From Parcubacteria group bacterium GW2011_GWA2_40_14 (GTDB lineage Bacteria; Patescibacteriota; Minisyncoccia; Phycocordibacterales; DATDWN01): DNA of 64,000 nt. Shown in pieces: positions 23,844 through 39,637 of this stretch (position 1 is its first letter; each line of letters starts with the position of its first letter). Both the position numbers and the translations under genes were made by a program. Under the pieces are notes generated by a model. The model ran no database searches and was not told the DNA's origin. It was given only the letters and a program-made list of their open reading frames with translations. The stretch spans positions 3,507 to 67,506 of the forward strand of contig LBYF01000001.1 of assembly GCA_000996025.1 (NCBI GenBank), given 5' to 3'.

Positions 23844-23936
23844 TCGAGACACGAGTACCGAGATACGAGAAACGAAGAAAATAAATGCATTCATAATCGT
23901 AATTCGGGTCTCGTAACTCTTAACTCTATCAAAAAG
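23844..23936. repeat. Family-3 palindromic repeat (CGTAACTCT words) between rpsL and rpsG
   Basis: The arms are cgagacacgagtaccgagatacgag...cgtaattcgggtctcgtaactcttaactc, and the copy ends 10 nt before the ATG. Confidence 0.7.
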
Positions 23937-24425
23937 ATGAGAAGAAAAGTCATAAACAGAAATATAGTTGGAAAAGATATTGAGTTCAACTCGGAAAAAG
24001 TTGGCAAATTTATTAATTATGTTATGGAAAGGGGTCAGAAAGAAACTGCGCGAAAAATTGTTTACGACGCATTTGAAATAATAAAAGATAAGGCGTTAGC
24101 TACGAAAGAAGCTACGATCGCGGATGCGCTTGAAATTTTTGAAACAGCTTTGAAAAATACGGGACCTTTGACAGAAGTTCGTTCACGAAGAGTTGGTGGG
24201 GCCAACTATCAGATTCCTCGTGAAGTTCGCCCAGAGAGACGAGTTTTCCTTTCCATGAAATGGATTATTGACTCTGCTCGCGATGGCAAGGGCAAGCCAA
24301 TGGCAAAAAAATTGGCAGATGAAATTATTTTAGCAAGTAAAAATGAAGGTAAAGCTGTTAAAAAGAGGGAAGATACGCACAAGATGGCGGAGGCCAATAA
24401 GGCCTTCGCCCATTTTGCATGGTAG
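23937..24425 (+). CDS. rpsG: 30S ribosomal protein S7
   Basis: The 162-aa ORF is typical S7 (GKKETA..VGGANYQIP). Confidence 0.9.
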   Translation: MRRKVINRNIVGKDIEFNSEKVGKFINYVMERGQKETARKIVYDAFEIIKDKALATKEATIADALEIFETALKNTGPLTEVRSRRVGGANYQIPREVRPERRVFLSMKWIIDSARDGKGKPMAKKLADEIILASKNEGKAVKKREDTHKMAEANKAFAHFAW

Positions 24426-24620
24426 TTTTTCTGGTCTTTTTGCCGAATTTCTTTGCTCTCGGTTTTGCCTGCTCCACGCAACGTACTGCTGTACGTTTTG
24501 GTCACAGTCAAAACCTGCGATCTTCGAAATTCAACAAAAATCCTCACAAAAACTTACAACTTTGACCTTTGCGAAAAATCCTCGGACCGAAAATATTCTC
24601 AACATCTGAATTTAACTAGG
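24426..24620. repeat. Degenerate family-5-like element in the rpsG-fusA spacer
   Basis: It contains an acgtac..gtacgt hairpin and a ggtcac word. This is the weakest match in the family. Confidence 0.35.
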
Positions 24621-24715
24621 CAAGACCTAGTCATATATTATAGATTGCTCAAAAAGGTGTTTTAGTATATAGTCTTATCTATTCTTATCCGAGAGGATTT
24701 TTTATTTTATAAACG

Positions 24716-26857
24716 ATGAATAGAGATTACACATTAGATAAAGTCAGAAATTTTGGAATCATAGCCCACATTGATGCGGGTAAAACAACCACATCTGAAC
24801 GCGTTTTATTCTATACAGGGATGACTCACAAAATCGGTGAGGTGCATGAAGGTGAAACGGTTACTGATTGGATGGATCAGGAGCGCGAGCGCGGAATTAC
24901 TATCACGGCTGCGGCCATTACCTGCTTCTGGAATAAAACGGATACAGAGAAAAAACCTGACAGCATGTATCGTTTCAATATTATTGACACTCCTGGTCAC
25001 ATTGATTTTACTGCAGAGGTTAAACGCTCGCTTCGCGTACTTGACGGGGCAGTAGTGGTTTTTGACGGTGTTGCCGGGGTTGAACCACAATCAGAAACTA
25101 ACTGGCGATATGCAGATGACGGAAATGTTCCAAGAATATGTTTTATAAACAAACTTGACCGAACAGGAGCTTCTTTTGAGCGTTCATACGCATCTATTTT
25201 AGACCGATTAAATAAAAATGCCGTACGTATGCAGATTCCGATGGGTTTGGAAGATAAGTTTGAGGGTGTTATTGACCTTTTAAAAATGAAAGCATACTTT
25301 TTTGAAGGAAATATGGGAATAACCATACGAGAGGAAGAAATTCCAGCTGAATTTCTAGAAGAAGCGAAAAAATACAGAGCAGAACTGATAGAGAAAATAG
25401 TGGAGCAGGACGACAAGATGATGGAGGCGTTTCTAGAAGGCAAGGAGCCATCGTTTGAGGATTTGAAAAAAACTTTGCGCAAAGCAACTCTGGCGGTAAA
25501 AATTATTCCTGTTTTTGCCGGTTCTGCACTGAAAAACAAAGGCGTTCAGCTTGTCCTTGACGCAGTGGTGGATTACCTGCCATCTCCTGTTGATATGCTT
25601 CCGGTTTGCGGACTTGACCCAAAAACAGGCGAGGAGATTTTCCGTAAGCCATCAGACGAAGAGCCATTTTCTGCTCTGGCTTTCAAACTCCAAAACGACC
25701 CGTTTGTTGGGCAGCTGACATTTTTCCGTGTCTACTCCGGAACGTTAGAAGCTGGAACATATATATACAACTCAACAACGGGCGAGAAGGAACGCCTTGG
25801 ACGTATTGTTCGCCTCCAGGCAGACAAACGTGAGGAGGTCAAAAAAGTTTTCTCTGGAGAAATCGCTGCGGCAGTGGGATTAAAGAGCGCAAAAACTTCT
25901 CACACTCTCTGCGATGAAGACAAACCGATTATTCTAGACCCAATTAAATTTGTGGACCCTGTCGTCTCTTTGCGTATTGAACCAAAAACAAAAGCTGACC
26001 AAGAAAAAATGGGTATGTCACTCAAAAAACTTGGAGACGAAGACCCCACCTTTGTTATTTCCTCAAACAGCGAAACAGGTGAAAGTATTATTTCCGGAAT
26101 GGGTGAATTGCATTTGGAAATTATGGTGGAACGTTTGAAACGAGAGTTTGGGGTAGAAGTAAATGTCGGCAAACCACAAGTGGCATATAGAGAAACAATT
26201 TTGGGTACTGCAGAAGCGGAACATAAATACATAAAACAAACAGGAGGCAAAGGACAATACGGACACGTCAAACTGACACTGAAGCCTTTGGAGAAAATTG
26301 AAGAAGGAAAAAAGATTCCAAAGAACACACATAGATACGAGGATTTTGAATTTATTGACTCAATAAAGGGAGGGGTTATTCCGCAAGAATTTATTCCGGC
26401 TGTAGAAAAAGGCGTACATGAGGCCATGGACCGGGGAATTGTGGCCGGATACAAAATGGTCAATGTATCCTGCGAGCTTACCTACGGTTCTTATCACGAC
26501 GTGGACTCATCGGAAATTGCATACAAAATTGCCGCTTCGCAGGCATTTCAAGATGCGGCAAAGAGAGCTCGTCCTGTTATCCTTGAGCCGATTATGAAAG
26601 TGGAAGCAATCATGCCGGAACAGTTCATGGGAGACATCACTGGTTCGCTTTCTGGAAAACGAGGTCAGATAGAAGGTATGGATGAACGTGGAATGCTCCG
26701 AGTTATACACGCCAAAGTGCCTCTGTCTGAAATGTTTGGCTATACCACAGACATCCGTTCAATGACCCAAGGTCGCGGTTCAGTCCAAATGGAATTTGAC
26801 CACTATGAGGTGGTGCCACCGAACGTGGCTACAACAATTATAGAATCAAGAAAATAA
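24716..26857 (+). CDS. fusA: Elongation factor G
   Basis: The 713-aa ORF has the G1 motif AHIDAGKTT and all five EF-G domains. Confidence 0.95.
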
Positions 26858-26867
26858 CATAAATTTT

Positions 26868-26935
26868 AAAAACTCTACAGACACTGGGTGTCTGTAGAGT
26901 TTTTTGCTAACACTGGGTGTTAGCAAGTTTTTAAT
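26868..26935 (+). terminator. Tandem pair of family-6 hairpins (both with an ACACTGGGTGT loop) after fusA
   Basis: Each of ctctacagacactgggtgtctgtagag and gctaacactgggtgttagc is followed by a T-run. Confidence 0.65.
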
Positions 26936-26969
26936 TGCGAGTAGTTTCTAAAGGCGATACAATATAAGT

Positions 26970-29528
26970 ATGAAAACTACTCCGGAGTATCCTACTCTCG
27001 CTATTTCATCTGAACTTGATGAAGTTTTAAATTCGAAAACACCTGCGCATTTTGATATTTTGCGTAAGCAAACTGAAACACCTCTGATTAGAGGAGGTGA
27101 AAAAGCTTTTTTGCAAGCAGCCAGAGAAAATCAGCCGACAGATTTACCTATTCCTTCCGATGAGGGAATTGTTCATTTTGAAAATGTAACAGTTTCTTCC
27201 TCTCCAGATAAAAATCGCCCTGAAAAAGTAAAAAATACGGAAGAAAAGAAAGAGGAAAAATTTCTTTTGCCTTCGCAAATATTGTTATCTCTGGATGAGA
27301 TGATAAAGAGTGGTCGCCTATTAAAATTCTTGAGATTTAGTGTGGCCGATGCAACTTCAAGTGACGACGTTGAATATTTTTTATTCATTGCCTGTGAAAA
27401 GGGTGATATTACAGTAGAAGAAAAACGAGAGATGCTCGCTTTTTTGAAATCGGAGACAACAGTTTCCTCCATCAGTGAAAAAGTGAAAAATCCTCCGAAT
27501 GCTGAAGGGGATTTAAAAATAGAAGAAGTGGTTGGAGAGACTTTACCGGAGCAGATAGAGGACACTCTTAGAGAGGCGCGTTCAGAATACGCAACACAAC
27601 TTATTGCTTGGAAAAATGAAATTCGGCAGAAAAAAGGAAAATTTGCAAAAGTTCTAGCAGACCTGGGTGGAGAACGGTCTCTGCCAGACCAAGAAAAGCC
27701 CCAAGAATTGAAAGATGCAGAAGAAGCTTATCTGGTAGCTAAAAAGAAAAAGAGACAAGTAATGTTTAGTCAGAGTGAAACTATGGTTGGAATGGAAGGC
27801 GACTACCAGTTCAATATGGAAATGATAAAAGAAGCCGAGAATGAATACATTTCTCTGCAAAGAAAAATTACAGAGTCACTGCCTCCTTTGGAAAAAGGCA
27901 TTGTCACAAAGGCCTTTGAAAAATGGGCCAAACTTCCTATGCCTGCACGGGTTGCTCTTAGTACGGCATTGCTTACAGGTACTTCTGTTGCTATTGGTTC
28001 TTTGGCACTCGGCGGCGCAGCGGCATATGGCGGATATCGTCTGGCACGCGGACTTGCTGGCGCCAGTGTCTCACAAGGAGTTGGTAAATTGGTAGACGGT
28101 ATATTTAGAAAAGGAAATGAAAGAATGAAGAGTAATATACTAGAGCAATATGGTACCAATATATCAGAAGAAAATTTTGAAAAGAAAGAGAAAGAAATGA
28201 TGCGAGCATTTGAGAAAGAAGAAAACGCTATAAAACGTCAGCGTTTATACAAAGCGACCGCGATGATAACTTCCGGTGGATTTGCAGCAGGAGTGCTTGG
28301 TAAAATTTCTTCTTTACAGAGCGCTGTGAATGCGCCAACTGTCGGAGGAGGAGTTCGTCTGTCGGAAAATATTCCAAAATCTGGGGTAATTGTATCGGAA
28401 CCTACGCCTCCTCCTGTGCCTGGACCCATGCTTGGACCAAAGGTGGTGGCAGAATTGCCGACAACGAAAGTGGAGCTTTCTCCGCGTGGATTTATTCAAG
28501 ATTTTGAAAATCTAAAAGCCAAGCTTGTAGAACAATATGGCGGGACGGATAAAGTGCCTGGGCAATACGAGCATTTTGTCAAAACTCCGGCTGTGAAACT
28601 GGCACAAGAGTTTGGTTTTTACGATGCAGAAAAAAATATGAGTGGAATAGGACTGAAAGGTGAGAGTTTGATACTGGACACAAAAGGCAACCTGGTCTAT
28701 CACCAGCTGGATGGTTCTGACCACATCATGATGGATACAAATACAGGAAGCGTGGAAGAAAAATTCAGTGGGAAAATGTTTACAAAGGATATTTCCGAAG
28801 AAGCAACTGCAGATAACGTTTCAGTTGAAACCAAGCCACAATCTGAAGTTTCTGTTGAACCGGAAGTAGTAGAAAATGCTCCACAGGCAACCGAGGCAGA
28901 AAATGTTCCTGAGATAAGTGAACCTGTTTCAGAGTCTGAAATGCCTGCTGAACCTCACGGAGCTGTTGAAAGCACTCCTATGGAAGCGGAAGCTAGTGTC
29001 TCCGAACCTCAGATTTTAAGGCATTTTCCAAGAAGCTTTGAAGAAACATCCATTAGTACACCTTCTGGAGTAACTCTCCACTATGACATTTCAACTGGCA
29101 AGAGCATTCCTGAATCGCTTCTTCTCAATGAGGTAGAATTTGCCCGTCGCTATAACTCTGGCGGAGCTGAAATATGGAAACTGGATGATAAATTTCAGAA
29201 TGGGAATGAATACAAAAATGTGCGCGCACTTTTAGCCCAATCAACCGAAGACCCAAGATATGTAAAACAGTTGGGCCGAATTGTGATGTCTGTGCCGTTT
29301 GAAGATGGCAAAATCCATATTGTTCAGGGTGTAGGCGGAGGCAATCCGAATGAAGCGACAGTTCTTTTGAATGGCAAAGAAGTTGCTAGAGGCACTCTGA
29401 CCCAAACCGGCCCGAAAATAGAATTAATCAAGGGACTCAAAGGAGGATTGCTTTTCCCTGACACGGCTTACGAGCGAGCATTCAAAAAAGTTTTACCTGT
29501 TATTAAGACATTAAAAATGAGAGAATAA
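26970..29528 (+). CDS. Large hypothetical membrane protein (852 aa; acidic, two Gly/Ala-rich TM helices)
   Basis: The long ORF has no internal stops and TM segments at ARVALSTALLTGTSVAIGSLALGGAAAYGGY and ATAMITSGGFAAGVLG. No family was recognised. It lies between fusA and tuf. Confidence 0.6.
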   Translation: MKTTPEYPTLAISSELDEVLNSKTPAHFDILRKQTETPLIRGGEKAFLQAARENQPTDLPIPSDEGIVHFENVTVSSSPDKNRPEKVKNTEEKKEEKFLLPSQILLSLDEMIKSGRLLKFLRFSVADATSSDDVEYFLFIACEKGDITVEEKREMLAFLKSETTVSSISEKVKNPPNAEGDLKIEEVVGETLPEQIEDTLREARSEYATQLIAWKNEIRQKKGKFAKVLADLGGERSLPDQEKPQELKDAEEAYLVAKKKKRQVMFSQSETMVGMEGDYQFNMEMIKEAENEYISLQRKITESLPPLEKGIVTKAFEKWAKLPMPARVALSTALLTGTSVAIGSLALGGAAAYGGYRLARGLAGASVSQGVGKLVDGIFRKGNERMKSNILEQYGTNISEENFEKKEKEMMRAFEKEENAIKRQRLYKATAMITSGGFAAGVLGKISSLQSAVNAPTVGGGVRLSENIPKSGVIVSEPTPPPVPGPMLGPKVVAELPTTKVELSPRGFIQDFENLKAKLVEQYGGTDKVPGQYEHFVKTPAVKLAQEFGFYDAEKNMSGIGLKGESLILDTKGNLVYHQLDGSDHIMMDTNTGSVEEKFSGKMFTKDISEEATADNVSVETKPQSEVSVEPEVVENAPQATEAENVPEISEPVSESEMPAEPHGAVESTPMEAEASVSEPQILRHFPRSFEETSISTPSGVTLHYDISTGKSIPESLLLNEVEFARRYNSGGAEIWKLDDKFQNGNEYKNVRALLAQSTEDPRYVKQLGRIVMSVPFEDGKIHIVQGVGGGNPNEATVLLNGKEVARGTLTQTGPKIELIKGLKGGLLFPDTAYERAFKKVLPVIKTLKMRE

Positions 29529-29537
29529 ACATATTGT

Positions 29538-29837
29538 ATGAGCAACATTTTATCAAAGGATATAATAAAAGAATGGGGACTTGGTACTTTACCAGAAGCA
29601 AAACAATTGGAGATTGTAGAGCGTATGGGACGTCTCTTGTACCAGGCTTTACTTGTACGAGCTCTGGATATTCTCTCTGAAAAAGAGCAGGTGGAGTTTG
29701 ATTTGCTTTTGGACGAAGATACTACAACACCTCAAGATGTTTTAAAATTTCTGGAGTCAAAAATTCCAACATTTGACATTCTCCTTGCCGAAGAAAAACA
29801 AAAATTGAAAGAAGATTTACTTGTGCCCGTGGCGTAA
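29538..29837 (+). CDS. Hypothetical 99-aa protein, coupled to the preceding ORF by a 9-nt spacer
   Basis: This is an ORF-only call. The sequence is acidic and helical. Confidence 0.4.
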   Translation: MSNILSKDIIKEWGLGTLPEAKQLEIVERMGRLLYQALLVRALDILSEKEQVEFDLLLDEDTTTPQDVLKFLESKIPTFDILLAEEKQKLKEDLLVPVA

Positions 29838-29838
29838 T

Positions 29839-29867
29839 TTGACATTGGAAGTCATTTTGTATAGTAT
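29839..29867 (+). promoter_or_regulatory. Sigma70-type promoter for tuf (TTGACA - 17 nt - TAGTAT)
   Basis: The -35 and -10 hexamers and the spacing are a perfect consensus. Confidence 0.6.
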
Positions 29868-29940
29868 ATTAAACATCGCGTTTTCGTGATTTTTTAATTT
29901 TATAAACAATTTATTAAATAACCACACGCTTTCAGATTTG

Positions 29941-29993
29941 GATGCCGAGCACCAGAAAATTCATTGGTGCTTCGGCGCCAAATGTGGAAGCTC
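29941..29993 (+). promoter_or_regulatory. tuf 5' leader: hairpin (gccgagcacc...ggtgcttcggc) followed by the family-5 motif GCGCCAAATGTGGAAGCTC
   Basis: The motif is complementary to the tuf trailer motif at 31221-31240. Confidence 0.5.
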
Positions 29994-30016
29994 TGTGACT
30001 AACATACAAAAATACA

Positions 30017-31222
30017 ATGGCAGAATCAGCAAAATTTGATAGAAGCAAGCCCCACATCAATGTGGGTACTATTGGTCACGTTGACCACGGCAAGACTACA
30101 TTAACAGCAGCTATTTTGGCTGTGCTTGGAAGAGCTGGCGCGGGATATTCATCCAGACTAAAAGGAGTTGACCAAATCGACTCCGCACCTGAAGAAAAAG
30201 CTCGTGGAATCACCATCGCTTTATCCCACAACGAGTATGAGACACCTGCCCGTCACTATGCTCACGTGGATGCTCCTGGTCACGCCGACTATATTAAAAA
30301 CATGATTACTGGCGCCGCACAGATGGACGGCGCAGTCCTTGTGGTTGCCGCAACAGACGGTGTCATGCCTCAAACACGAGAGCATGTTCTCCTTGCAAAA
30401 CAAGTTGGTGTGCCAAAGATAATCGTATTTCTAAACAAATGCGATATGGTTCCAGACAAAGAGCTTATTGATTTGGTGGAGGAAGAAGTTCGAGAACTTC
30501 TAACAAAACAAGGTTTTGATGGCGCGGGAGCTCCTGTAATCCGAGGTTCAGGATTGAAAGCTCTTGAGTCAAAAGACAATACAGACGAATGGGCAATGAA
30601 AGTTCTGGACTTGGCTAGTGCATTGGACACATATTTCCCAATTCCACAGCGAGATTTGGACAAGCCATTCCTCATGCCAGTTGAAGACATTTTCTCTATT
30701 GAAGGACGAGGTACTGTAGTAACAGGCCGTATTGAAAGAGGCGTTGTTAAAGTTGGCGAGGAAATAGAATGTATTGGATTGAAAGACACACAGAAATATA
30801 CAGTTACTGGTATTGAAATGTTCAACAAGTCTCTTGACCAAGGTCAGGCAGGAGACAACGCTGGAATCTTGCTCCGTGGTGCCAAGAAAGAAGAAATTCA
30901 CCGAGGTCAGGTGCTGTCAAAGCCAAAGTCTGTTACTCCTCACACAGAATTTACAGCAGAGGTTTATATCTTGAAGAAAGAAGAAGGTGGACGACACACA
31001 CCTTTCTTTACTGGTTACAAACCGCAGTTTTACATCCGAACAACAGATGTTACAGGTGACGTTACTCTAAACGAAGGTGTTGAGATGGTCATGCCTGGAG
31101 ATACAGTCACTTTCAAAGTAAAGCTCGTTGCTCCGGTTGCGCTTGAAGACAATACGCGATTTGCTATACGCGAGGGAGGAAAGACTGTTGGCGCTGGGGT
31201 CGTTACCAAGATCATAGCGTAA
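30017..31222 (+). CDS. tuf: Elongation factor Tu
   Basis: The G1 motif [10 protein letters not shown] and the rest of the 401-aa ORF are canonical EF-Tu. Confidence 0.95.
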
Positions 31223-31740: not shown

Positions 31741-31805
31741 CTTACGATATCTCGTAATAAATACACCTATCATACGCTATAGCGTATGATAGGTGTATAG
31801 TGAAC
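31741..31805. repeat. Family-7 perfect palindromes (cttacgatatctcgtaa; atacacctatcatacgctatagcgtatgataggtgtat)
   Basis: The second palindrome is nearly identical to the copy at 40262. Confidence 0.6.
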
Positions 31806-31925: not shown

Positions 31926-32291
31926 TTGATATATAAAACTGTCGGAAAAGTTTATCGTCCTATTTTGAAAGAATATGTTACTTTTAATTCTAAAGGTTTT
32001 TATCACTTACGATACGATACTCACGAGAAAGCGAGAAGGGTGAAAGAACAAATATACAAATTTAATTTGCTTCCACTTATTATTCCCGCAATTAAAAACG
32101 CAAAAAATGTGTTTGATTATAAAAAAGAGCAGTATTCCAAACTCCTTGGCAAATATTACGAAATATGGGAACTTCGAGAAACTGTTGGAGGGAAAAACCC
32201 AACTTCGCTATCTGTGATTTTGAGAAGGATCGGGAACGGAAATATTACATTTCTTAGTGTGTATGACAGAAAACCAAAAATGAAAAAATAG
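31926..32291 (+). CDS. Hypothetical protein; the C-terminal half weakly resembles RelE/ParE-fold toxins
   Basis: YEIWELRETVGG...SVILRRIGNGNITFLSVYDRK echoes the RelE pattern (ELR..YRIIY..V.IL.IGHRK). The match is weak. Confidence 0.3.
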   Translation: MIYKTVGKVYRPILKEYVTFNSKGFYHLRYDTHEKARRVKEQIYKFNLLPLIIPAIKNAKNVFDYKKEQYSKLLGKYYEIWELRETVGGKNPTSLSVILRRIGNGNITFLSVYDRKPKMKK

Positions 32292-32435
32292 AAACAAAAA
32301 AGCCATCATGGGGATGGTATTTTTGTGACGTCCACTTTCGGCGTAGAGTAACCTCAAGCCGAATAAAGCTTGCGCTTGATGGACGCTAGAGGCAGTATAT
32401 ATGGAAAGGCATTAAAAGTCAATGAATGAATAAAT

Positions 32436-32464
32436 TTGACCCCATAACTATTCTCTGCTAGTAT
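32436..32464 (+). promoter_or_regulatory. Sigma70-type promoter for the S10 operon (TTGACC - 17 nt - TAGTAT)
   Basis: The hexamer spacing is exact, and the promoter lies 12 nt upstream of rpsJ. Confidence 0.55.
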
Positions 32465-32475
32465 CTTTCTTACAT

Positions 32476-32898
32476 ATGGTAACGAAAGAAGCTCCTACAA
32501 AGAAAGTGGCGGGAAAGACGGCGGTCAAAAAGACTGCGGCTAAAGTTGTTGCCAAACCTAAAGTTGCAAAGGCGCCCGCAAAGCAAGAAACAGTTTCCAA
32601 ACTGCGTATTCGGGTACAGGCCTACGAATACAAGATTCTTGATTTGTCAGTCAAGCAAATCATAGATACGGCTATTCGTTATGATGCTGTAGTGCAAGGA
32701 CCTATTCCTCTTCCGACAAATATAAAAAAATACACTGTCAATCGTTCGGCATTTATTTTTAAAAACGCCCGCGAGCAGTTTGAAATGCGAATTCACAAAC
32801 GACTGATTGATATTTTGAACCCTACTCCAAAGATAATGGAGGCACTGACGAATCTCTCACTTCCGAGTGGTGTAAATATTGATGTAAAAATTATTTAA
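32476..32898 (+). CDS. rpsJ: 30S ribosomal protein S10 with a 40-aa Lys/Ala-rich N-terminal extension
   Basis: The S10 core begins KLRIRVQAYEYKILD. The N-terminus KKVAGKTAVKKTAAKVVAKPKVAKAPAK is histone H1-like. Confidence 0.9.
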   Translation: MVTKEAPTKKVAGKTAVKKTAAKVVAKPKVAKAPAKQETVSKLRIRVQAYEYKILDLSVKQIIDTAIRYDAVVQGPIPLPTNIKKYTVNRSAFIFKNAREQFEMRIHKRLIDILNPTPKIMEALTNLSLPSGVNIDVKII

Positions 32899-33019
32899 CC
32901 GTATGGTTGAATAAAAAGCTGATATCTGCTAATGTATCTCAATCCCATTAGAACTAACGGATTTATAAAATCCTATTTCTAACGGGATAAATCGCCGTTA
33001 CGGCATTTTTATTTTTCTT

Positions 33020-33655
33020 ATGACTAAATTTATATTAGGCACAAAAATAAATATGACCCAAATCTTTGACGAGGCGGGGATTGTTCATCCAGTAACTGCC
33101 ATCAAGGCGGGACCGATGATTGTCACACAGGTTAAGTCTGAAAAAACAGATGGTTATTCTGCCATCCAAGTCGGTTTTGGCGCACGCAAAGCAAAAAATA
33201 TAAATAAACCTTTGAGAGGTCATATTAAAGATAATAATTTTATGTATCTTCGCGAATTTCGTACAGATGATACACAGGGTAACCCTGTGTATACTGTCGG
33301 CGATGCGATTGACATTTCCACTTTTTCTGAAGGTGATAAAGTTACTGTTTCCAGTATTTCAAAAGGCAAAGGTTTTCAAGGTGTTGTAAAGCGACACGGT
33401 TTTAAAGGGGGTCCTCGTTCACACGGACAAAAGCATTCCGAACGCGAGCCGGGCTCTATAGGTGGCGGTGGTCGTGACGGCGGACGTGTGGCAAAAGGAA
33501 AAAGAATGGCAGGTCGTATGGGCGGAGACAGAATCACTTCAAAAGGTTTGACGATAGTTTCTGTCAAACCAGAAACAGGCGAGCTTTTTATTCGTGGAGC
33601 GGTGCCGGGAAGAAGGGGAACATTAATAGAGATAAGAGATACGAGTAAAGAGTAA
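33020..33655 (+). CDS. rplC: 50S ribosomal protein L3
   Basis: MTKFILGTKINMTQIFDEAG begins a typical L3. The last 7 codons are encoded by the family-3 repeat arm. Confidence 0.9.
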   Translation: MTKFILGTKINMTQIFDEAGIVHPVTAIKAGPMIVTQVKSEKTDGYSAIQVGFGARKAKNINKPLRGHIKDNNFMYLREFRTDDTQGNPVYTVGDAIDISTFSEGDKVTVSSISKGKGFQGVVKRHGFKGGPRSHGQKHSEREPGSIGGGGRDGGRVAKGKRMAGRMGGDRITSKGLTIVSVKPETGELFIRGAVPGRRGTLIEIRDTSKE

Positions 33656-33710
33656 CGGATTTGAATTATTCGTAACTCGTATCTCGATACTCGTAACTCT
33701 ATTCAAAATT
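33640..33710. repeat. Family-3 palindromic repeat overlapping the rplC 3' end
   Basis: The arms are agagataagagatacgagtaaagagtaacg / cgtaactcgtatctcgatactcgtaactct, and the copy ends at the rplD ATG. Confidence 0.75.
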
Positions 33711-34427
33711 ATGGAAGGAACAATTTACAACCAAAAAGGAAAGGAATCAGGAAAAATCTCCCTGCCGGAAGCAGTTTTTGGTTTGAAGTGGAATGCCGAC
33801 CTTGTGCATCAGGTTGTTGTTTCTATGGAATCAAGCGCCCGTACACCTGTGGCTCATGCAAAAAACCGTGGGGATGTAAGAGGCGGAGGTAAAAAGCCAT
33901 GGAAGCAAAAAGGCACTGGTCGTGCTCGCCATGGTTCAATCCGTTCTCCCCTCTGGAGACATGGAGGTGTTACGCACGGCCCAACAAATCTGAAAAATTT
34001 TGATAGAAAAATAAACAAGAAAATGAAAGCCAAAGCGCTTTACACAATCCTTTCCAAAAAATTTAAAGATAATCAGGTAGTTTTTGTTGATAAGATTGAA
34101 TTTTCTTCTATAAAAACAAAATTTGCGAAAGAAGTGATGGATTCACTGTTTGATAAAGCTTCAAAAAAGAAAAACAATGCAATTCTTCTTACAATTCCAA
34201 AGAAAGATAAAAACGTGGAAAAAAGTTTCAGTAATTTTGGCAATCTAAAAGTGGATGAAATTCGAAACATTAGTCCGATTGATTTGATGAAATATAAATA
34301 TGTTGCTATCGTTGATCCAGAAAAAGGTCTACCACAAATTTCTAATAAAATCGAGGTAAGAGTAAAGAGTAAAGAGTTACGAAAAATCCAAAATTCAGAT
34401 TCTAAACTCGATACTCATAACTCGTAA
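33711..34427 (+). CDS. rplD: 50S ribosomal protein L4 with a repeat-encoded C-terminal tail
   Basis: The L4 core is followed by 25 aa (VRVKSKELRKIQNSDSKLDTHNS) encoded by a family-3 repeat. Confidence 0.9.
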   Translation: MEGTIYNQKGKESGKISLPEAVFGLKWNADLVHQVVVSMESSARTPVAHAKNRGDVRGGGKKPWKQKGTGRARHGSIRSPLWRHGGVTHGPTNLKNFDRKINKKMKAKALYTILSKKFKDNQVVFVDKIEFSSIKTKFAKEVMDSLFDKASKKKNNAILLTIPKKDKNVEKSFSNFGNLKVDEIRNISPIDLMKYKYVAIVDPEKGLPQISNKIEVRVKSKELRKIQNSDSKLDTHNS

Positions 34428-34438
34428 CTCTACCCAAT
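34355..34438. repeat. Family-3 palindromic repeat overlapping the rplD 3' end
   Basis: The copy reads gagtaaagagtaaagagttacg...cgatactcataactcgtaactct. Confidence 0.7.
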
Positions 34439-34717
34439 ATGAATGATCTGACACATATTTTAATAAGACCGCACATTACCGAGAAAGCAACAATATCGGC
34501 GGAGTCTTCAGTCTATGTTTTTGAAATAGATGCTCGTACCACAAAAGCTATAGTGAAAAAAGCATTTGTAGAAAAATACAAAATCACTCCGCTAAAAATC
34601 AGAACGGTTACTATTCCAGCCAAGCAAGTTTTTGTCCGAGGCAAGAGAGGGACAAAGGCCAGTTACAAAAAGGCCTACATTTATTTAAAGAAAGGAACTA
34701 AGGTAGAAAATTTATAG
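34439..34717 (+). CDS. rplW: 50S ribosomal protein L23
   Basis: The 92-aa ORF reads ...ITEKAT....VFEID. Confidence 0.85.
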   Translation: MNDLTHILIRPHITEKATISAESSVYVFEIDARTTKAIVKKAFVEKYKITPLKIRTVTIPAKQVFVRGKRGTKASYKKAYIYLKKGTKVENL

Positions 34718-34772
34718 GAATAATAAAGCCGCGCTAAAAGGACGGTTGCGCGACATGATTTCGCTAAATCAC

Positions 34773-35615
34773 ATGAAAAGATATAAACCAACAACAAAAT
34801 CCCGCCGACAAATGACAACTATTTCATTTGGGGATTTTGTGACAACAAACGAGCCGGAGAAATCGTTAACGCACGGTTTCCGAAGACAAATGGGACGAAA
34901 CCATCACGGCAAAGTAACAACTCGTCACAAAGGAGGTGGTCACAAAAGACTCTTCCGAGAGATTGATTTTAAATACGACAAAATAAATGTTCCGTACACT
35001 ATAAAAACAGTAGAGTATGACCCAAACCGCTCTGGCTTTATTGGCTTGGCACAGTATAAAGATGGTGAGAAAAGATACGTTCTTCTTCCTCGTGGAGTAA
35101 AAGTGGGCGATATCCTAGTGACTTCGGAGACAGCAGAAGTAAAAGTTGGAAACAGGCTACCTCTCCGTAACATCACTATCGGCACATTTGTTTACAATGT
35201 AGAAGTCAAGCCAAAAGGTGGCGCAAAAATGGCTCGTTCTGCAGGAAACTTTGTGGAGGTCATTGCAAAGGACGCCGGTTATGTGGACATCAAACTTCCT
35301 TCTACTGAAATCCGCAAAGTGTTGGACACAGCATGGGCATCAATTGGAGATGTTTCAAATCAGGAAAACCGACTGGTCAATCTCGGCAAAGCCGGCCGTT
35401 CACGATGGCTTGGCATACGCCCAACTGTTCGTGGTACGGCCATGAACCCAGTTGACCACCCACACGGAGGAGGTGAAGGTCGCCAAGGTCGCGGCCGCAG
35501 ACGAGCAATCTCCATCTACGGTAAGGGAACAGGAAAGGGTCAGAAGTCCCGAACTCCAAAGAAGTACTCCAATAAATTCATCGTCTCACGAAGAAAAGTT
35601 GGAAAAAGAAAGTAA
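34773..35615 (+). CDS. rplB: 50S ribosomal protein L2
   Basis: MKRYKPTTKSRRQMT...GGGHKR...HPHGGGEG are L2 signatures. The start was moved to the internal ATG. Confidence 0.9.
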   Translation: MKRYKPTTKSRRQMTTISFGDFVTTNEPEKSLTHGFRRQMGRNHHGKVTTRHKGGGHKRLFREIDFKYDKINVPYTIKTVEYDPNRSGFIGLAQYKDGEKRYVLLPRGVKVGDILVTSETAEVKVGNRLPLRNITIGTFVYNVEVKPKGGAKMARSAGNFVEVIAKDAGYVDIKLPSTEIRKVLDTAWASIGDVSNQENRLVNLGKAGRSRWLGIRPTVRGTAMNPVDHPHGGGEGRQGRGRRRAISIYGKGTGKGQKSRTPKKYSNKFIVSRRKVGKRK

Positions 35616-35644
35616 AAATGATATAGTTGGTTGAGGAGGGACAC

Positions 35645-35893
35645 ATGAGTCTAGAAGAGAGAGAGAGCTTAGAGACAATCGCCAGTCAATTAGGAAAAGA
35701 ATTGGTCGGAGTTATTCCGGGCGTTTGGGGCACCAGTCTTACTGCAAGGCCTGTAAAAGAGCCAGAGTTAAAGCTTAAAGTGATTTGTACCGAGGAAGCT
35801 AAACAAAAAGTTCTTCAAAAATACGGCGACGATAGTTACCGAGGTCATAAACTTTATTTTCAAATTTCAGAACAAGGTCCTCGATTTGCGTAA
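35645..35893 (+). CDS. Hypothetical 82-aa protein inserted between rplB and rpsS, with a strong SD (GAGGAGGG) and its own terminator
   Basis: This is an ORF call. It has an SD 6 nt upstream of the ATG and is followed by a GC hairpin plus T-run. No family was recognised. Confidence 0.5.
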   Translation: MSLEERESLETIASQLGKELVGVIPGVWGTSLTARPVKEPELKLKVICTEEAKQKVLQKYGDDSYRGHKLYFQISEQGPRFA

Positions 35894-35905
35894 CCATAAT
35901 TTTCT

Positions 35906-35936
35906 CCAGGGCGGTCCAGGCGACCGCCCTTTTTCA
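35906..35936 (+). terminator. Rho-independent terminator (gggcggtc caggc gaccgccc plus a T-run)
   Basis: The GC-rich stem is unusual in this AT-rich context. Confidence 0.7.
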
Positions 35937-35965
35937 TTTGACAATATATAGTATATTATATAGTA
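35937..35965 (+). promoter_or_regulatory. Internal sigma70-type promoter ahead of rpsS (TTGACA - 17 nt - TAGTAT)
   Basis: The hexamers and spacing are a perfect consensus, directly after the terminator. Confidence 0.55.
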
Positions 35966-36055
35966 TGTAGCCCAAGTAAAGAGCCCATTACCTCTTATAC
36001 GATTTGTTTGCGGTAGTCGACAGAATACCACTAACAAAGTGGTTTTTAATTTGTT

Positions 36056-36100
36056 TTTTTATTCGTATCCATTCGTGTTTTAATTCGTTATTTCGTATTT
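36056..36100. repeat. Family-1 repeat half-copy abutting the rpsS ATG
   Basis: The sequence is attcgtatccattcgtgttttaattcgttatttcgtatttATG. Confidence 0.65.
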
Positions 36101-36454
36101 ATGACAAGGTCATCAAAAAAAGGTCCATATGTAGATGAACGAGTTCTCAAGAAAATTGAGGGCAAAAAGCCACTTGAAACAGGGGTTATTAAAACGTGGT
36201 CAAGAGCTTGTGTCATATCACCAGAAATGGTCGGTTTTAATTTTGGTGTTCACAATGGCAGAACTCATCTGGAAGTTCTTGTCTCCGAAGACATGGTCGG
36301 ACACCGTCTGGGTGAATTTTCTCCAACTAAAAAGTTTATAAAACACGGAGGAAAGATGCAGAAAGAGCAAGAGCAGAAAGCAAAGGAAGGCGAGATTGCC
36401 GCCGCACAGTCTGCAAAGGCAGTGACCGCTGAACCAGCAGGAGCAAAAAAATAA
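36101..36454 (+). CDS. rpsS: 30S ribosomal protein S19 with a 24-aa K/Q/A-rich C-terminal extension
   Basis: [13 protein letters not shown]...GHRLGEF is the S19 core. Confidence 0.9.
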
Positions 36455-36465
36455 CCGCGATACAA

Positions 36466-36545
36466 ATATGCGAATACATACGAATAAAACGAATAGAATA
36501 CAAGAAATGGAATTAATTTTCGTATCATTCGCATAAATTCGTATA
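36466..36545. repeat. Degenerate family-1 repeat upstream of rplV
   Basis: The tacgaata / attcgcata words are arranged palindromically. Confidence 0.5.
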
Positions 36546-36563
36546 TTGGTATCGATAAACTAT

Positions 36564-36962
36564 ATGAAAACTGCTCACGCCACACTTTCAAATTTCCGAC
36601 AAGCACCACGCAAAATGCGTATGGTGGCAAATACTGTACGTGGTAAAAGAGTTGTTGATGCCTTGATTAATTTGGAATTTACTGCAAAAAAAGCCTCACT
36701 TCCTATAAAAACTCTTATACAATCTGCCGTGGCAAATGCAAAAGCTATGGACTTGCCTACAGAAAATCTAATAATAAAAACTATCAAAGTAGATTCAGGC
36801 AAAATTTTATACAGGCGAATGCCAGCCGCTCAAGGAAGCGCGCACCCTATACGTAAGAGAACCAGTTCAATCTTTGTTGAACTGGGCGAGAATCGAGAAC
36901 CGAGTACCGAGAAACGAAAAATCAAGAATCCAAAATCGAAACTCGTATCTCGTATCTCTTAA
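36564..36962 (+). CDS. rplV: 50S ribosomal protein L22 with a repeat-encoded C-terminal tail
   Basis: The L22 core is followed by ENREPSTEKRKIKNPKSKLVSRIS, which is encoded by the family-3 repeat. Confidence 0.85.
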   Translation: MKTAHATLSNFRQAPRKMRMVANTVRGKRVVDALINLEFTAKKASLPIKTLIQSAVANAKAMDLPTENLIIKTIKVDSGKILYRRMPAAQGSAHPIRKRTSSIFVELGENREPSTEKRKIKNPKSKLVSRIS

Positions 36963-36973
36963 CTCTACCTACC
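36885..36973. repeat. Family-3 palindromic repeat overlapping the rplV 3' end
   Basis: The copy reads gagaatcgagaaccgagtaccgagaaacg...cgaaactcgtatctcgtatctcttaactct. Confidence 0.7.
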
Positions 36974-37633
36974 ATGACACATACCGTTCATCCATATTCA
37001 CATCGCCTAGGAATCATCCGAGATTGGAAATCTCGCTGGTTTGGCGTAAAAAATAAATACAAGGAATTTTTGAAAAGTGATGTGCTTTTACGGGAGTATT
37101 TGGAGAAAAAACTTCGTGATAACTATGTCAGCAATATAGAAATGGAGCGAGGTGAGAAAGTGTTGCGTATTATTATTGAGACATCTCGTCCAGGTATGAT
37201 TATTGGTCGCTCAGGTGATGGCGCCGTTAAATTAAAAAAGGATATTTCTGCATTTTTGAATAAACATAAACTTTCTCCTCTCGGCGAAGTGAAAGTGGAT
37301 ATAAAAGAAATTAAATCTCCCGAGTCAAACGCCACAATCGTTGCCCAAATGGTTGCCGATGGATTGGAAAAGCGTTTGCCTTTCCGCCGTGTGGTGAAAC
37401 AGATGGTGGAAAAAGTTATGGCAAATCGTGATGTCCTTGGTGTAAAGATAGAATTGTCTGGACGACTCGGTGGCGCTTCAATGGCACGTCAGGAAAAAAT
37501 AAAGAAAGGTCGTATTCCGCTTCAGACTTTCCGCGCCGATGTGGATTTTTGTAAATATAAAACAAGAGTCCCTTATGGGGGTGTTGGTATTAAGGTTTGG
37601 ATATATAAGGGAGAAGTGTTCGCAAAAAAGTAA
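36974..37633 (+). CDS. rpsC: 30S ribosomal protein S3
   Basis: The 219-aa ORF has a KH domain and the S3 C-terminus. Confidence 0.9.
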   Translation: MTHTVHPYSHRLGIIRDWKSRWFGVKNKYKEFLKSDVLLREYLEKKLRDNYVSNIEMERGEKVLRIIIETSRPGMIIGRSGDGAVKLKKDISAFLNKHKLSPLGEVKVDIKEIKSPESNATIVAQMVADGLEKRLPFRRVVKQMVEKVMANRDVLGVKIELSGRLGGASMARQEKIKKGRIPLQTFRADVDFCKYKTRVPYGGVGIKVWIYKGEVFAKK

Positions 37634-37721
37634 AAAGTTTGTAAAGTTATAAAGTTCATAAAGTAAAATCCATAATCCACTTTACAAACTTTAAAAACTT
37701 TCAACTTTATAAACTAAATTT
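37634..37721. repeat. Family-2 palindromic repeat between rpsC and rplP
   Basis: The copy reads aaagtttgtaaagttataaagttcataaagt ... ctttacaaactttaaaaactttcaactttataaact. Confidence 0.75.
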
Positions 37722-38138
37722 ATGTTGTTACCAAAAAAAGTAAAATACAGAAAGTGGCAAACATTTCGAAAGAACGCTAATAAAGTTGGTGTGGCTTCAC
37801 GTGGTACCACTATTTCTTTCGGCTCTCATGCCTTGAAAGCCCTGTCAGGAGCGCGTATTATGTCAAACCAGATTGAAGCTGGCAGAAAAGCCCTATCTCG
37901 CGCAGTTGGTAAGACCGGCAAGATTTGGATCCGCATTTTTCCAGATATGCCCCTGACCAAAAAGCCAGCTGAAGTGAAGCTTGGTAAAGGAAAGGGTGAT
38001 TTGTTTGGCTACTGCGCGCCGGTTAAGCCAGGAAGAATTATTTTTGAAGTTGATGGTGTTACGGATGCAGTTGCCAGAGAAGCTTTGCGAAAAGCTGGAA
38101 CGAAATTACCCCTCAAAACAAAGATAATCTCTCACTAG
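37722..38138 (+). CDS. rplP: 50S ribosomal protein L16
   Basis: [11 protein letters not shown]...GKGKGD is typical of L16. Confidence 0.9.
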
Positions 38139-38320
38139 AACTTCCAAATTATGACCAATGTGATTTTTCACAATTCAACTTCAGATTTTCCTCCTTACAG
38201 GAGCAGTACACCTTTTCGATCTTTTGAGTACAAAAACTCTGAAAAGGTCTTGCGAAGTCATACCCATGACTTCTCACTCGACCTTGGCCAAATTTGAAAG
38301 TTCTAGCCAAATGTGAAATT
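38139..38320. repeat. Family-5 element after rplP with 14-bp terminal inverted repeats (AGAACTTCCAAATT / AATTTGAAAGTTCT); it also supplies the rpmC leader motif GCCAAATGTGAAAT
   Basis: It has a terminal-inverted-repeat structure and shares its internal start AAATTATGACC with the copy at 43411. Confidence 0.7.
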
Positions 38321-38333
38321 TAGTGTATATTAA

Positions 38334-38537
38334 ATGAAATTTATGAAAGAGTTTACAAACAAAAGTAAAAAGGAACTACAGACAATACTTTCAGAAAAAA
38401 GACTAGCTTTGCGCACATTTCGCTTTTCCATAGCGGGTAGCAATATGCGCAATGTGAAAGAAGGTAGCGCACTGAAGAAAGATATTGCTATGGTGTTGAC
38501 TCTTTTGAATGTGAAAGCAAAAGTGAATAACGAATAA
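38334..38537 (+). CDS. rpmC: 50S ribosomal protein L29
   Basis: The helical ORF is 67 aa, begins KSKKELQTIL, and is in the expected operon position. Confidence 0.75.
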   Translation: MKFMKEFTNKSKKELQTILSEKRLALRTFRFSIAGSNMRNVKEGSALKKDIAMVLTLLNVKAKVNNE

Positions 38538-38543
38538 AGAATA

Positions 38544-38801
38544 ATGAATAATGAAAAAATAAAAAATAATACAGTAAAAACTCTCTCGGGAGTAGTAGTG
38601 TCAAATAAGATGACAGACACTGTTGTGGTGGAAGTTGTTCGTTTTGTAAAACATCCAAAGTACGGCAAGTACGTCTCTAAAAGCAAAAAGTTTAAAGCCC
38701 ACGATGTCGGCAATACAAAGCAAATTGGGGATAAGGTTACCATAGAGGAGTGCAGACCAATTTCAAAAGATAAACACTTTAGAATAGTCGAAAGTTCGTA
38801 A
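38544..38801 (+). CDS. rpsQ: 30S ribosomal protein S17
   Basis: [18 protein letters not shown]...HD is the S17 OB fold. Confidence 0.85.
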
Positions 38802-38878
38802 AGTTATAAAGTTCATAAAGCAGACTCAAAACCCACTTTACAAACTTTAAAAACTTTATAACTTTATAAACTAAAATT
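38802..38878. repeat. Family-2 palindromic repeat between rpsQ and rplN
   Basis: The copy reads gaaagttcgtaaagttataaagttcataaagc...ctttacaaactttaaaaactttataactttataaact. Confidence 0.75.
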
Positions 38879-39250
38879 ATGATCCAACCGCAATCAATTG
38901 TCAAAATAGCAGATAACACCGGAGCAAAAATCGGACGCGTGTTCAAAGTGCTCGGAAGTTCCAAAAAGAGATACGCCAGCATAGGCGAGTTGGTGGTTCT
39001 CTCTGTCCAGAAAGCTGAACCTAGAAAAACAACAAAGAAAAAAGATATTTTGTATGCAGTGGTTGTCCGTCAACGAGCGCCTTTTCGAAGAAAGGACGGC
39101 TCATATATTCGTTTTGACGAAAATGCAGTAGTTATAGTGGTCAAAGATAAAAAAGAGCCGGTAGCAGGACGTATTTTCGGTCCTATCCCGCGGGAACTTG
39201 GTGAGATGGGGTATCAAAAGATTATTAGTTTAGCCCCAGAAGTAGTCTAA
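38879..39250 (+). CDS. rplN: 50S ribosomal protein L14
   Basis: MIQPQSIVKIADNTGAK is typical of L14. Confidence 0.9.
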   Translation: MIQPQSIVKIADNTGAKIGRVFKVLGSSKKRYASIGELVVLSVQKAEPRKTTKKKDILYAVVVRQRAPFRRKDGSYIRFDENAVVIVVKDKKEPVAGRIFGPIPRELGEMGYQKIISLAPEVV

Positions 39251-39335
39251 AATTGAGTCAAGAGTAGCGAGATAAGAGTCACGAAGAATGCAAAATCGTA
39301 ACTCGAGTCTCGGAACTCGTAACTCTATCAATATC
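39251..39335. repeat. Family-3 palindromic repeat between rplN and rplX
   Basis: The copy reads gagtagcgagataagagtcacg...cgtaactcgagtctcggaactcgtaactct. It creates a spurious upstream ORF extension of rplX. Confidence 0.7.
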
Positions 39336-39602
39336 ATGAATGTAAAAAAAGATGACAAAGTAATAGTGCTCACCGGTAAAGACAAAGGTAAAACAGGAAC
39401 CGTTGTCAAATCATTTCCAAAAGAAAACAGAGTCATTGTTTCTGGTGTAAATATTTTGAAAGTTCATCAGAAGCCTCGAAAGAGTGGAGAGAAAGGACAG
39501 ATACTAGACAAGACCATGCCGATAGATGTATCCAACGTAAAAAGGGTCGAGGCACGAGGTACGAGAAAAGAGACCCGAAAAATCAAAGGCTCAAAATCGT
39601 AA
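39336..39602 (+). CDS. rplX: 50S ribosomal protein L24 with a repeat-encoded C-terminal tail
   Basis: MNVKKDDKVIVLTGKDKGK is the KOW domain. The track ORF starts 16 codons upstream, inside the repeat. Confidence 0.85.
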   Translation: MNVKKDDKVIVLTGKDKGKTGTVVKSFPKENRVIVSGVNILKVHQKPRKSGEKGQILDKTMPIDVSNVKRVEARGTRKETRKIKGSKS

Positions 39603-39637
39603 CTCTATACTCGTAACTCTTAACTCTATTAAAAACT
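39560..39637. repeat. Family-3 palindromic repeat overlapping the rplX 3' end
   Basis: The copy reads gtacgagaaaagagacccg...cgtaactctatactcgtaactcttaactct. Confidence 0.7.

Follow-up and report, generated by a model that had tools for sequence, protein, structure and literature searches.

Inverted heptamer-array hairpins between ribosomal-protein genes of a Zambryskibacteria genome: lineage-specific repeats with a possible role in the mRNA

The closest known analogues of the repeats described here are miniature inverted-repeat transposable elements (MITE), repetitive extragenic palindromes (REP) and Rickettsia palindromic elements (RPE), together with TAACTGA heptamer arrays, and of these the TAACTGA array is the nearest described system. 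TAACTGA direct repeats occur in marine Beggiatoaceae, cyanobacteria and Bacteroidetes, where they lie just upstream of start codons without a Shine-Dalgarno (SD) sequence, including starts in ribosomal-protein operons, and their function is unknown (MacGregor 2015, PMC4679880). BOGUAY has 169 direct TAACTGA sets and one inverted set, and the introduction to the same paper, citing Mrazek 2007, describes heptanucleotide tandem repeats as the commonest long simple repeats in prokaryotes and attributes them to polymerase slippage (PMC4679880). RPE are short palindromic repeats of a small genome that join coding genes and add lineage-specific peptides to housekeeping proteins, while MITE, REP, BIME, Correia and ERIC elements are known to affect translation, the stability of mRNAs or their processing by RNase III or RNase E, and insertion of the Chunjie MITE leaves its host operon intact (PMC10969869). 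Here we analyse a stretch of 64,000 nt (the window) of Parcubacteria group bacterium GW2011_GWA2_40_14 (contig LBYF01000001.1, positions 3,507 to 67,506 of the forward strand), in which a palindromic repeat, designated family 3, fills six spacers between ribosomal-protein genes.

The family-3 element is an imperfect palindrome of 80-91 nt built as an inverted pair of heptamer arrays. Four to five GAGNNNN units form the left arm, an A-rich loop of 15-25 nt follows, and four to five NNNNCTC units, which read TCGTAAC, TCGTATC or TCTTAAC, form the right arm and end in AACTCTA. The GAG every 7 nt in the left arm, the CTC every 7 nt in the right arm and the terminus TAACTCTA are invariant. The window contains 29 occurrences of CTCGTAWCTC (with at most one mismatch) against 4.0 expected, a number reached by none of 100 shuffles. 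A covariance model trained on the six window copies and one foreign copy returned exactly six matches in the window, at 84-97 bits, and no seventh (Table 1). These are the six spacers named by the initial annotation, which had been made from the sequence alone; the sites were correct, although two of its starts (33640 and 39560) fall ~16 nt inside the elements. It also held the copies to be alignable as one family, and this is borne out by a mean column identity of 70-73% and pairwise identities of 67-76%. Its loop type (gaaaaatcaa..caaaatcg) is found in ~4 of the six copies but not in the others, and the exact 9-mer that it named, CGTAACTCT, is missing from the L22-S3 copy, which carries CGTATCTCT and CTTAACTCT. 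The 8-12 nt that it placed between the right arm and the next ATG were measured as 6-9 nt from the AACTCTA end, and the elements are not confined to the S10 operon, where it had set them, since the str and spc clusters also hold copies.

Each copy folds at -18 to -28 kcal/mol (z = -2.4 to -5.1). The predicted structure has no continuous stem; helices of 3-5 bp, formed by GAG:CUC and neighbouring bases, repeat every 7 nt with internal loops of 2-4 nt between them. A scan for intrinsic terminators flagged none of the six copies and found canonical terminator-like sites elsewhere in the window (e.g. 35908-35930 and 41924-41954). In an Rfam scan of the window at gathering scores the tmRNA was the sole match, family 3 matching no family, including the ribosomal-protein autoregulatory leaders, and a search of viral contigs gave no match. 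We also considered whether the right arm, with a TAA every 7 nt, would stop translation in any frame. This idea was rejected, as all three frames are closed in just 1 of 15 right arms and the family-3 arms close one or two.

The str, S10 and spc ribosomal-protein clusters of this uncultured Zambryskibacteria bacterium (Parcubacteria/Paceibacteria) are all present in the window, in the order S12, S7, EF-G, two unknown genes, EF-Tu, S10, L3, L4, L23, L2, S19, L22, S3, L16, L29, S17, L14, L24, L5, a gene with four helix-turn-helix (HTH) domains, S14, S8, L6, L18, S5, L15 and SecY. An identical L4 protein is listed under Parcubacteria GW2011_GWF2_39_8b / Candidatus Zambryskibacteria. The window DNA was found in six independent groundwater metagenome assemblies at 99.93-99.98% identity, and the family-3 sequence is therefore not an assembly artefact. 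When examined for 7-nt slippage variation, the family-3 copies showed zero differences among these six same-species assemblies, which represent a clonal population. There is no SD signal in the window: SD-like 4-mers precede 8 of the 81 called genes, which equals the 9.9% background, and over the 20 nt before each of the 81 starts the composition is 74% A+T, with G at only 11%.

Four upstream open reading frames (ORFs), those of L3, L4, L22 and L24, overlap the element, exactly the four that the initial annotation had singled out. The last 10 L3 codons overlap the left arm, with the L3 stop (33653-33655) at the arm-loop border and the end of the element 9 nt before the L4 ATG at 33711. The L4-L23 copy lies nearly entirely inside the L4 ORF, whose stop (34425-34427) belongs to the final unit of the right arm and precedes the L23 ATG (34439) by 11 nt. 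The L22-S3 copy is within the L22 ORF; its right arm contains the L22 stop (36960-36962), and the S3 ATG follows 11 nt later, at 36974. The L24 ORF (stop 39600-39602) extends through the left arm and the loop of the L24-L5 copy into the first part of its right arm, and the L5 ATG (39638) lies 9 nt beyond the end of the element. In the two remaining copies the left arm adjoins the preceding stop, that of S12 (23841-23843) or of L14 (39248-39250); 8 nt separate the end of the former copy (23928) from the S7 ATG (23937), and as many lie between the end of the latter and the true L24 ATG at 39336.

The C-terminal tails of these proteins were assessed by tblastn against 80 related loci, by comparison of the C-termini of 120 L4 homologs and by alignments with 12-13 orthologs. 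The claim that the tails are repeat sequence holds for L4, L22 and L24, whose tails are not found in orthologs, but not for L3, in which only the five residues DTSKE are new. The LIEIR codons of L3 (33623-33637) overlap the left arm yet encode conserved L3 sequence, the orthologs ending ...GRRGTL[VI]E[VI]RG(K/S), and tblastn homology reaches residue 205-206 of 211. In L4, homology stops at ...PQISNKIE and the tblastn matches to the relatives end at residue 214-215; the core end could be located in 113 of the 120 homologs, and in 91 of these it is followed by 0-4 residues. The tail of 23 residues is unique to this species. L22 is conserved up to IFVELGEN, beyond which the tails of relatives are unrelated, 0-35 residues long and in some cases encoded by hairpins of other families, and L24 is conserved through VSNVKRV, with close orthologs ending 2-11 residues past the conserved VSNVKKV. 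Since the ORFs enter the element in different frames, the L4, L22 and L24 tail peptides are mutually unrelated. The purine-rich left arm and the A-rich loop give all of them a high content of K, R, E and S, in which they resemble the native basic tails of orthologs. P0022, whose L4 is 71% identical, probably carries a family-3 copy, since its L4 tail ends ...ELRIKNKKTLIHNS. The false N-terminus that had been suspected for L24 is also real: the upstream ATG at 39288 lies in the hairpin loop, in frame with 39336, and every L24 ortholog starts at the position of the latter, 12 of 12 aligned beginning there with M[KNH][IV][KR]K[DGN]D. The Pfam KOW domain begins at residue 21 of the long L24 ORF, and public gene calls adopt this long form (104 residues instead of 88).

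The spacers that carry family 3 in the window differ among its relatives, which are given here as loci with three-digit numbers. Locus L089 (76% L4 identity) has a compact operon with spacers of 1-16 nt and no hairpins. L087 and L088 (82% L4 identity) and L008 (69%) hold other heptamer families, among them TTTCTAA/TTGAAAA, AAAGT and ACGAAT, in different subsets of the same spacers, and in L008 the L3-L4 and L22-S3 spacers hold AAAGT-family hairpins where the window has family 3. No fetched relative has an orthologous family-3 copy. The family-3 10-mer is found in 3 of the 80 related loci, once in each, and in these loci the covariance model found only three weak copies, all in the distant Nomurabacteria locus L069. 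By this comparison the family-3 copies were evidently gained after the split from the nearest sequenced relatives, in ancestral spacers of 1-20 nt. The same comparison supports a quick gain, loss and replacement of repeat families, which fits mobile-repeat-like insertion. The initial annotation had likewise proposed a mobile palindromic unit, and its proposal stands in so far as the spacers of the closest relatives are empty or hold another hairpin family; the marks of a transposon, however, were not found. No direct repeat flanks the six copies or the copy on contig L154 (flanks read by eye, from sequence and alignments), no transposase was identified among the 40 window ORFs, not the full set, that were scanned with Pfam (35 matched a family), and no pair of family-3 copies is more than 76% identical, so that there are no recent pairs. 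The sole basis for regarding the repeats as mobile is their patchy distribution.

Similar hairpins extend well beyond this species. Among 292 expanded ribosomal-protein spacers of Paceibacteria, 80 contain hairpins with z < -3; the best periodicity is 7 nt in 31 of these 80 strong-hairpin spacers, against 20 of 172 spacers with z >= -2, and the hairpins end a median of 10 nt before the ATG. Many of the heptamer families, otherwise unrelated, share an NAG/CTN core at 7-nt spacing, and in L082 (Wolfebacteria RIFOXYD12_FULL_48_21) the left arms of the L29-S17 and S14-S8 hairpins consist of literal TAACTGA/TGACTAA heptamers. In a distant contig, whose PilB protein is 54% identical, a family-3 copy of ~80% identity lies 10 nt upstream of pilB. 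A metagenome scan used the pattern CGAG-N4-GAG...CTCGTAWCTCT, which is so loose that most matches are due to chance and no frequency is estimated from it; among the matches listed were the L154 copy and ~10 unrelated GAGTTAC/GTAACTC heptamer hairpins on contigs with a GC content of 0.40-0.65. On contigs L129, L163, L173, L175, L191, L148, L144 and L196 (GC 0.47-0.65) the hairpins are inverted arrays of GAGTTAC/GAGATAC/GCGAGTT and GTAACTC/GTATCTC/CTCTTAA, some with 4-6 identical tandem units. They lie after the stops or before the starts of unrelated genes, these being chorismate mutase to prephenate dehydratase, a YscW-like gene, RecJ and Hsp20.

Family 3 resembles the TAACTGA arrays in its tandem 7-nt forward units (TCGTAAC reads as TAACTCG), in ending a few nt before starts in place of an SD sequence, in its presence in ribosomal-protein operons, in the occasional overlap with the end of the upstream ORF and in its patchy phylogenetic distribution. 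Where a TAACTGA-type array has at least two tandem forward units ending near an SD-less start, the right arm has 4-5 such units ending 6-9 nt from it. TAACTGA-type arrays are, however, direct repeats of exact or near-exact units, whereas the family-3 units are degenerate (3-4 of 7 positions fixed, 4-5 units per arm), their arrays nearly always have an inverted partner 15-25 nt upstream with which they form a hairpin, and several distinct families occur within one genome. Like RPE, family 3 extends conserved housekeeping proteins with lineage-specific segments. RPE, which are ~100-150 bp long and not built of heptamers, are in-frame insertions within ORFs that code for a conserved peptide, whereas most copies of the family-3 type are intercistronic, and where ORFs are involved their 3' ends run into the element in different frames and terminate inside it.

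With the MITE, REP, BIME, Correia and ERIC elements the family shares the properties of 50-150-nt non-coding multi-copy repeats with inverted arms that are intergenic and co-transcribed within operons, and its six copies of 80-91 nt in 64 kb fall within the size and copy range of MITE (about 50-500 bp, non-coding, multi-copy). It differs from this class in lacking a visible target-site duplication, in the absence of an identified transposase or REP-associated tyrosine transposase (RAYT) in the annotated part of the window, and in its arms, which are periodic heptamers throughout and not terminal inverted repeats around a core. The stems are 'beaded' (3-5-bp helices with 2-4-nt internal loops) and not continuous; the arms are 69% paired in register, and the termini AATCGAG... 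and ...TAACTCTA are not reverse complements of each other. RAYT-associated REP/REPIN elements are palindromes of 20-40 bp with a GTAG or CGTC end tag (PMC3733652); family 3, at 80-90 nt, has this tag at neither end. Nor does it show the compensatory changes of a structured cis-regulatory RNA or the GC-rich stem and T-run of an intrinsic terminator. Intercistronic stem-loops are known to stabilise or process polycistronic mRNAs, as do the malE-malF REP and the intercistronic hairpins of chloroplasts. The family-3 elements are like these in forming a hairpin between a stop and the next start of an operon, with no U-tract and no role as a terminator, and unlike them in being repeat families that turn over between close species, with a function that we can only infer.

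At least five hairpin families in the window, family 3 among them, have arms of reiterated short motifs, and together they occupy most stop-to-start spacers of the translation-gene operons (Table 1). Further hairpins or arrays precede nusA, sod, pilB and pilC. Start-proximal hairpins are found at 15 of 27 translation genes and at 5 of 54 others (odds ratio 12, Fisher p = 1.3e-5). The loop of the AAAGTT family is oriented with transcription in each of its three copies, of which one lies on the minus strand. Single arms with no partner also lie directly upstream of starts, at nusA and S19 in the window, the latter being a right arm of the ACGAAT/ATTCGT family at 36058-36097, and at S10, L3 and S19 in L008. 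Two direct arrays without an inverted partner were observed as well, TTTCTAATTTCTAATTTTTAA at 11670-11701 before an unknown gene of 432 codons and AAATTTTTAATTTAAAATTTAAAAAC at 21047-21094 before sod; the TTTCTAA unit forms the arm of a full hairpin family in L088.

Table 1. Coordinates of the family-3 copies, the repeat-encoded protein segments and the sister hairpin families in the window
Feature	Location or sequence	Coordinates	Strand	Evidence or score
Family 3	S12-S7 (rpsL-rpsG)	23841-23931	+	88.4 bits; -24.5 kcal/mol, z = -4.1
Family 3	L3-L4 (rplC-rplD)	33624-33704	+	85.9 bits; -24.9 kcal/mol, z = -3.75
Family 3	L4-L23 (rplD-rplW)	34348-34435	+	84.9 bits; -19.2 kcal/mol, z = -3.6
Family 3	L22-S3 (rplV-rpsC)	36890-36970	+	83.9 bits; -20.0 kcal/mol, z = -2.35
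Family 3	L14-L24 (rplN-rplX)	39250-39330	+	97.1 bits; -27.9 kcal/mol, z = -5.1
Family 3	L24-L5 (rplX-rplE)	39544-39631	+	85.4 bits; -18.2 kcal/mol, z = -2.6
L4 tail	residues 216-238, 23 aa, VRVKSKELRKIQNSDSKLDTHNS	34356-34424	+	tblastn, homolog C-termini, alignment
L22 tail	residues 111-132, 22 aa, REPSTEKRKIKNPKSKLVSRIS	36894-36959	+	tblastn, alignment
L24 tail	residues 72-88, 17 aa, EARGTRKETRKIKGSKS	39549-39599	+	alignment
L3 non-conserved C-terminus	DTSKE, 5 residues	33638-33652	+	alignment, tblastn
L24 false N-terminal extension	ATG 39288 in hairpin loop, in frame with 39336	39288-39335	+	
AAAGTT/AACTTT	S3-L16	37634-37716	+	83-88% pairwise identity in the family
AAAGTT/AACTTT	S17-L14	38790-38875		
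AAAGTT/AACTTT	infC-rpmI	56756-56845	-	
AATGTAAA/TTTACATT	S14-S8	42219-42341	+	82-92% pairwise identity in the family
AATGTAAA/TTTACATT	S8-L6	42740-42860		
AATGTAAA/TTTACATT	S5-L15	44477-44599		
ACGAAT/ATTCGT	S19-L22	36455-36545	+	
ACGAAT/ATTCGT	upstream of rsmE	490-576		
ACGAAT/ATTCGT	pilB	6931-7015		
ACGAAT/ATTCGT	pilC	8879-8971		
ACTTCCAAATT...AAATTTGAAAGT	L16-L29			
ACTTCCAAATT...AAATTTGAAAGT	L6-L18			
ACTTCCAAATT...AAATTTGAAAGT	after tuf			

We favour, with a probability of about 0.5, a composite explanation in which the gained repeats have been retained for a post-transcriptional role, either the protection or segmentation of the mRNA or the provision of a context for SD-independent initiation or re-initiation. 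New copies would arise by the copying of existing elements, probably by a recombinational or slippage-driven route, since no transposon hallmarks were found. Where a copy replaced or displaced the old stop, the upstream ORF now continues across the purine-rich left arm and the loop to a TAA, which gives basic tails of 17-23 residues on L4, L22 and L24, five residues on L3 and a spurious in-frame ATG before L24. The elements would be transcribed in the polycistronic mRNA and are predicted to fold there as a 'beaded' hairpin with GAG:CUC helices every 7 nt, which would bring the upstream stop near the next start and leave 6-12 unpaired A/U-rich nt before the ATG. Retention would follow from their action as intercistronic stem-loops, whether by protecting or segmenting the mRNA or by setting the context in which an SD-independent start is used.

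A retained role in the mRNA is favoured because the sister-family hairpins are conserved and because translation genes show a ~12-fold enrichment of hairpins. The S19-L22 and S17-L14 hairpins of the window have orthologs in L008, to which they are 86% and 85% identical, with nearly identical arms, while third positions of the four-fold type in the flanking genes are only 28-54% identical. This is not expected of fixed junk and therefore points to a host-level role. Several observations weigh against this explanation. The conservation above synonymous sites was seen for two sister families only, family 3 having no orthologous copy in the fetched relatives. Of the 16 consensus pairs of family 3 none shows a double change, and shuffling gives a higher mean covariation score (0.088) than that observed (0.063). 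Variation falls at the N4 positions, most of which are unpaired, and leaves the GAG and CTC triplets untouched. Pairing of the arms within a copy (69%) is no better than pairing between arms shuffled among copies (71%). In 14 of 18 hairpins the antisense strand gives the better fold; G-U pairs number 45 in the antisense and 21 in the sense strand, so that wobble pairing does not argue for selection on the sense RNA. As estimated from base composition, the A-richness of the sense strand may account for much of this asymmetry. Finally, the hairpin-free operon of L089 means that the elements are dispensable for the operon.

The lack of covariation and the hairpin-free relative would be equally natural if the elements were selfish or neutral repeats of the MITE/REP kind, spread by an activity of their own or by host recombination and tolerated without any host function, which we regard as possible but not probable. 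The patchy distribution, the occupation of the same spacer by different families in different species and the ~80%-identical family-3 copy in a distant genome all suit such a repeat, and the adjacency to stops and starts would follow automatically from insertion into ancestral spacers of 1-20 nt. It would leave unexplained why orthologous copies have kept 85-86% identity beside four-fold sites at 28-54% and why translation genes are so strongly preferred, and the absence of a target-site duplication, of a transposase among the annotated ORFs (not all of which were scanned) and of any family-3 pair above 76% identity also speaks against it. The observation that invariant triplets are separated by drifting and mostly unpaired N4 positions, and that the arm sequence is conserved beyond the needs of pairing, could instead be explained if the arms were a platform for an RNA-binding protein. 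In this case a multi-domain or ring-shaped protein would read triplets every 7 nt (GAG-N4; CUC-N4/TAAC-type) and control downstream translation, the opposite arm serving as an anti-site. The NAG/CTN core at 7-nt spacing in many unrelated Paceibacteria families and the unpartnered single arms upstream of starts (nusA in the window; S10, L3 and S19 in L008) are consistent with this, and the same hypothesis has been given for the TAACTGA arrays (PMC4679880), of which L082 has literal units. We nevertheless think a protein platform quite unlikely, since no candidate protein has been identified and five families with different motifs would call for several proteins or for one of loose specificity. 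By analogy, candidates would be S1-like or Csp-like proteins, or an analogue of HutP, which binds NAG-N4 triplets, or of TRAP. Within the cluster itself, the gene between L5 and S14 (40878-41912) encodes a 344-residue protein with about four tandem XRE-type HTH domains; it was considered as the hairpin binder and is unlikely to be so, as it is missing from the corresponding spacer of L087 and L088, both of which bear hairpins.

A broader form of the same idea, for which we see a doubtful case, is that heptamer-array hairpins are a widespread and previously undescribed post-transcriptional control of the translation apparatus in SD-less Patescibacteria. A multi-domain or ring-shaped RNA-binding protein would recognise NAG/CUN triplets at 7-nt intervals or, alternatively, the arrays would stand in for the SD helix by docking on the 30S platform 6-12 nt upstream of the start. 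Ribosomes finishing the upstream cistron would open the complementary arm, which would serve as a switch, and the families would be interchangeable regulatory modules that spread like mobile elements. It is highly improbable, on the other hand, that the elements act or arise at the level of DNA, as a cruciform, a nucleoid-protein site, a recombination hot spot or a by-product of replication slippage or template switching. The prevalence of heptanucleotide repeats and their attribution to slippage, the antisense strand that folds at least as well as the sense, and the recent identical tandem units on the unrelated metagenome contigs L163 and L175 fit such an origin. Against it, the loop orientation tracks transcription and not the replication strand, on the evidence of one minus-strand copy, the 7-bp spacing mismatches the DNA helical repeat, loops of 15-25 nt disfavour cruciform extrusion, and neither the enrichment at highly expressed operons nor the placement relative to start codons would be expected.

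If the hairpins do act in expression, they would reveal the means by which translation or mRNA stability is organised in the largest operons of a bacterium whose tiny genome shows no SD signal, and they would offer a testable handle on the heptamer arrays found upstream of starts in other phyla. Should they prove to be the control system outlined above, the same principle would explain the TAACTGA-type arrays of Beggiatoaceae, cyanobacteria and Bacteroidetes. Even if they are merely tolerated, repeat turnover remodels the C-termini of the universal proteins L4, L22 and L24 within a genus-level time span. The repeats are also a cause of systematic annotation errors, such as the false L24 start and the repeat-derived tails that are annotated as ordinary protein.

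Several other features of the window were observed. A tmRNA gene lies at 61444-61842 on the minus strand (Rfam RF00023, 76.9 bits); it was not reported by ARAGORN, which found no tRNA genes in the window. The S5-L15 interval (44488-44602) contains no L30 gene, and the absence of L30 is a trait reported for the candidate phyla radiation. Between fusA and tuf (26970-29837) an 852-residue protein with no Pfam match is followed by a 99-residue protein with a weak match to DUF5663, and the position of this pair is conserved in L087 and L089. The S10 cluster is interrupted by the L2-S19 interval (35627-36100), which contains an ORF of 88 codons, then the terminator-like hairpin at 35908-35930 and a promoter-like site at 35938-35966. 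A homolog of the 88-residue product (64% identical) is encoded in the same place in L088, and in L087 and L089 the interval holds a different small ORF family, the two members being 46% identical to each other.

The called S12 (162 residues, 23355-23843) and S10 (140 residues, 32476-32898) proteins have N-terminal extensions of ~25-59 and 43 residues, respectively, before the Pfam domain, and tblastn homology of S12 to most relatives starts at about residues 14-26. It may be that the true starts lie further downstream or that the extensions are specific to this lineage. At position 40663 the assemblies L002, L004 and L005 have ~126 nt more than the window, and an ORF of 170 codons is called across the site, where a gene may have been deleted in part in the window. 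Lastly, a perfect loop-less palindrome (halves ATACACCTATCAYACGCTA and TAGCGTRTGATAGGTGTAT; arms of 19-23 nt, 100% complementary) is present in two copies, one upstream of the S10 region (31761-31798) and the other after L5 (40268-40313). In assembly L001 the sequence is inverted precisely at the copy after L5, probably because the palindrome misled the assembler.

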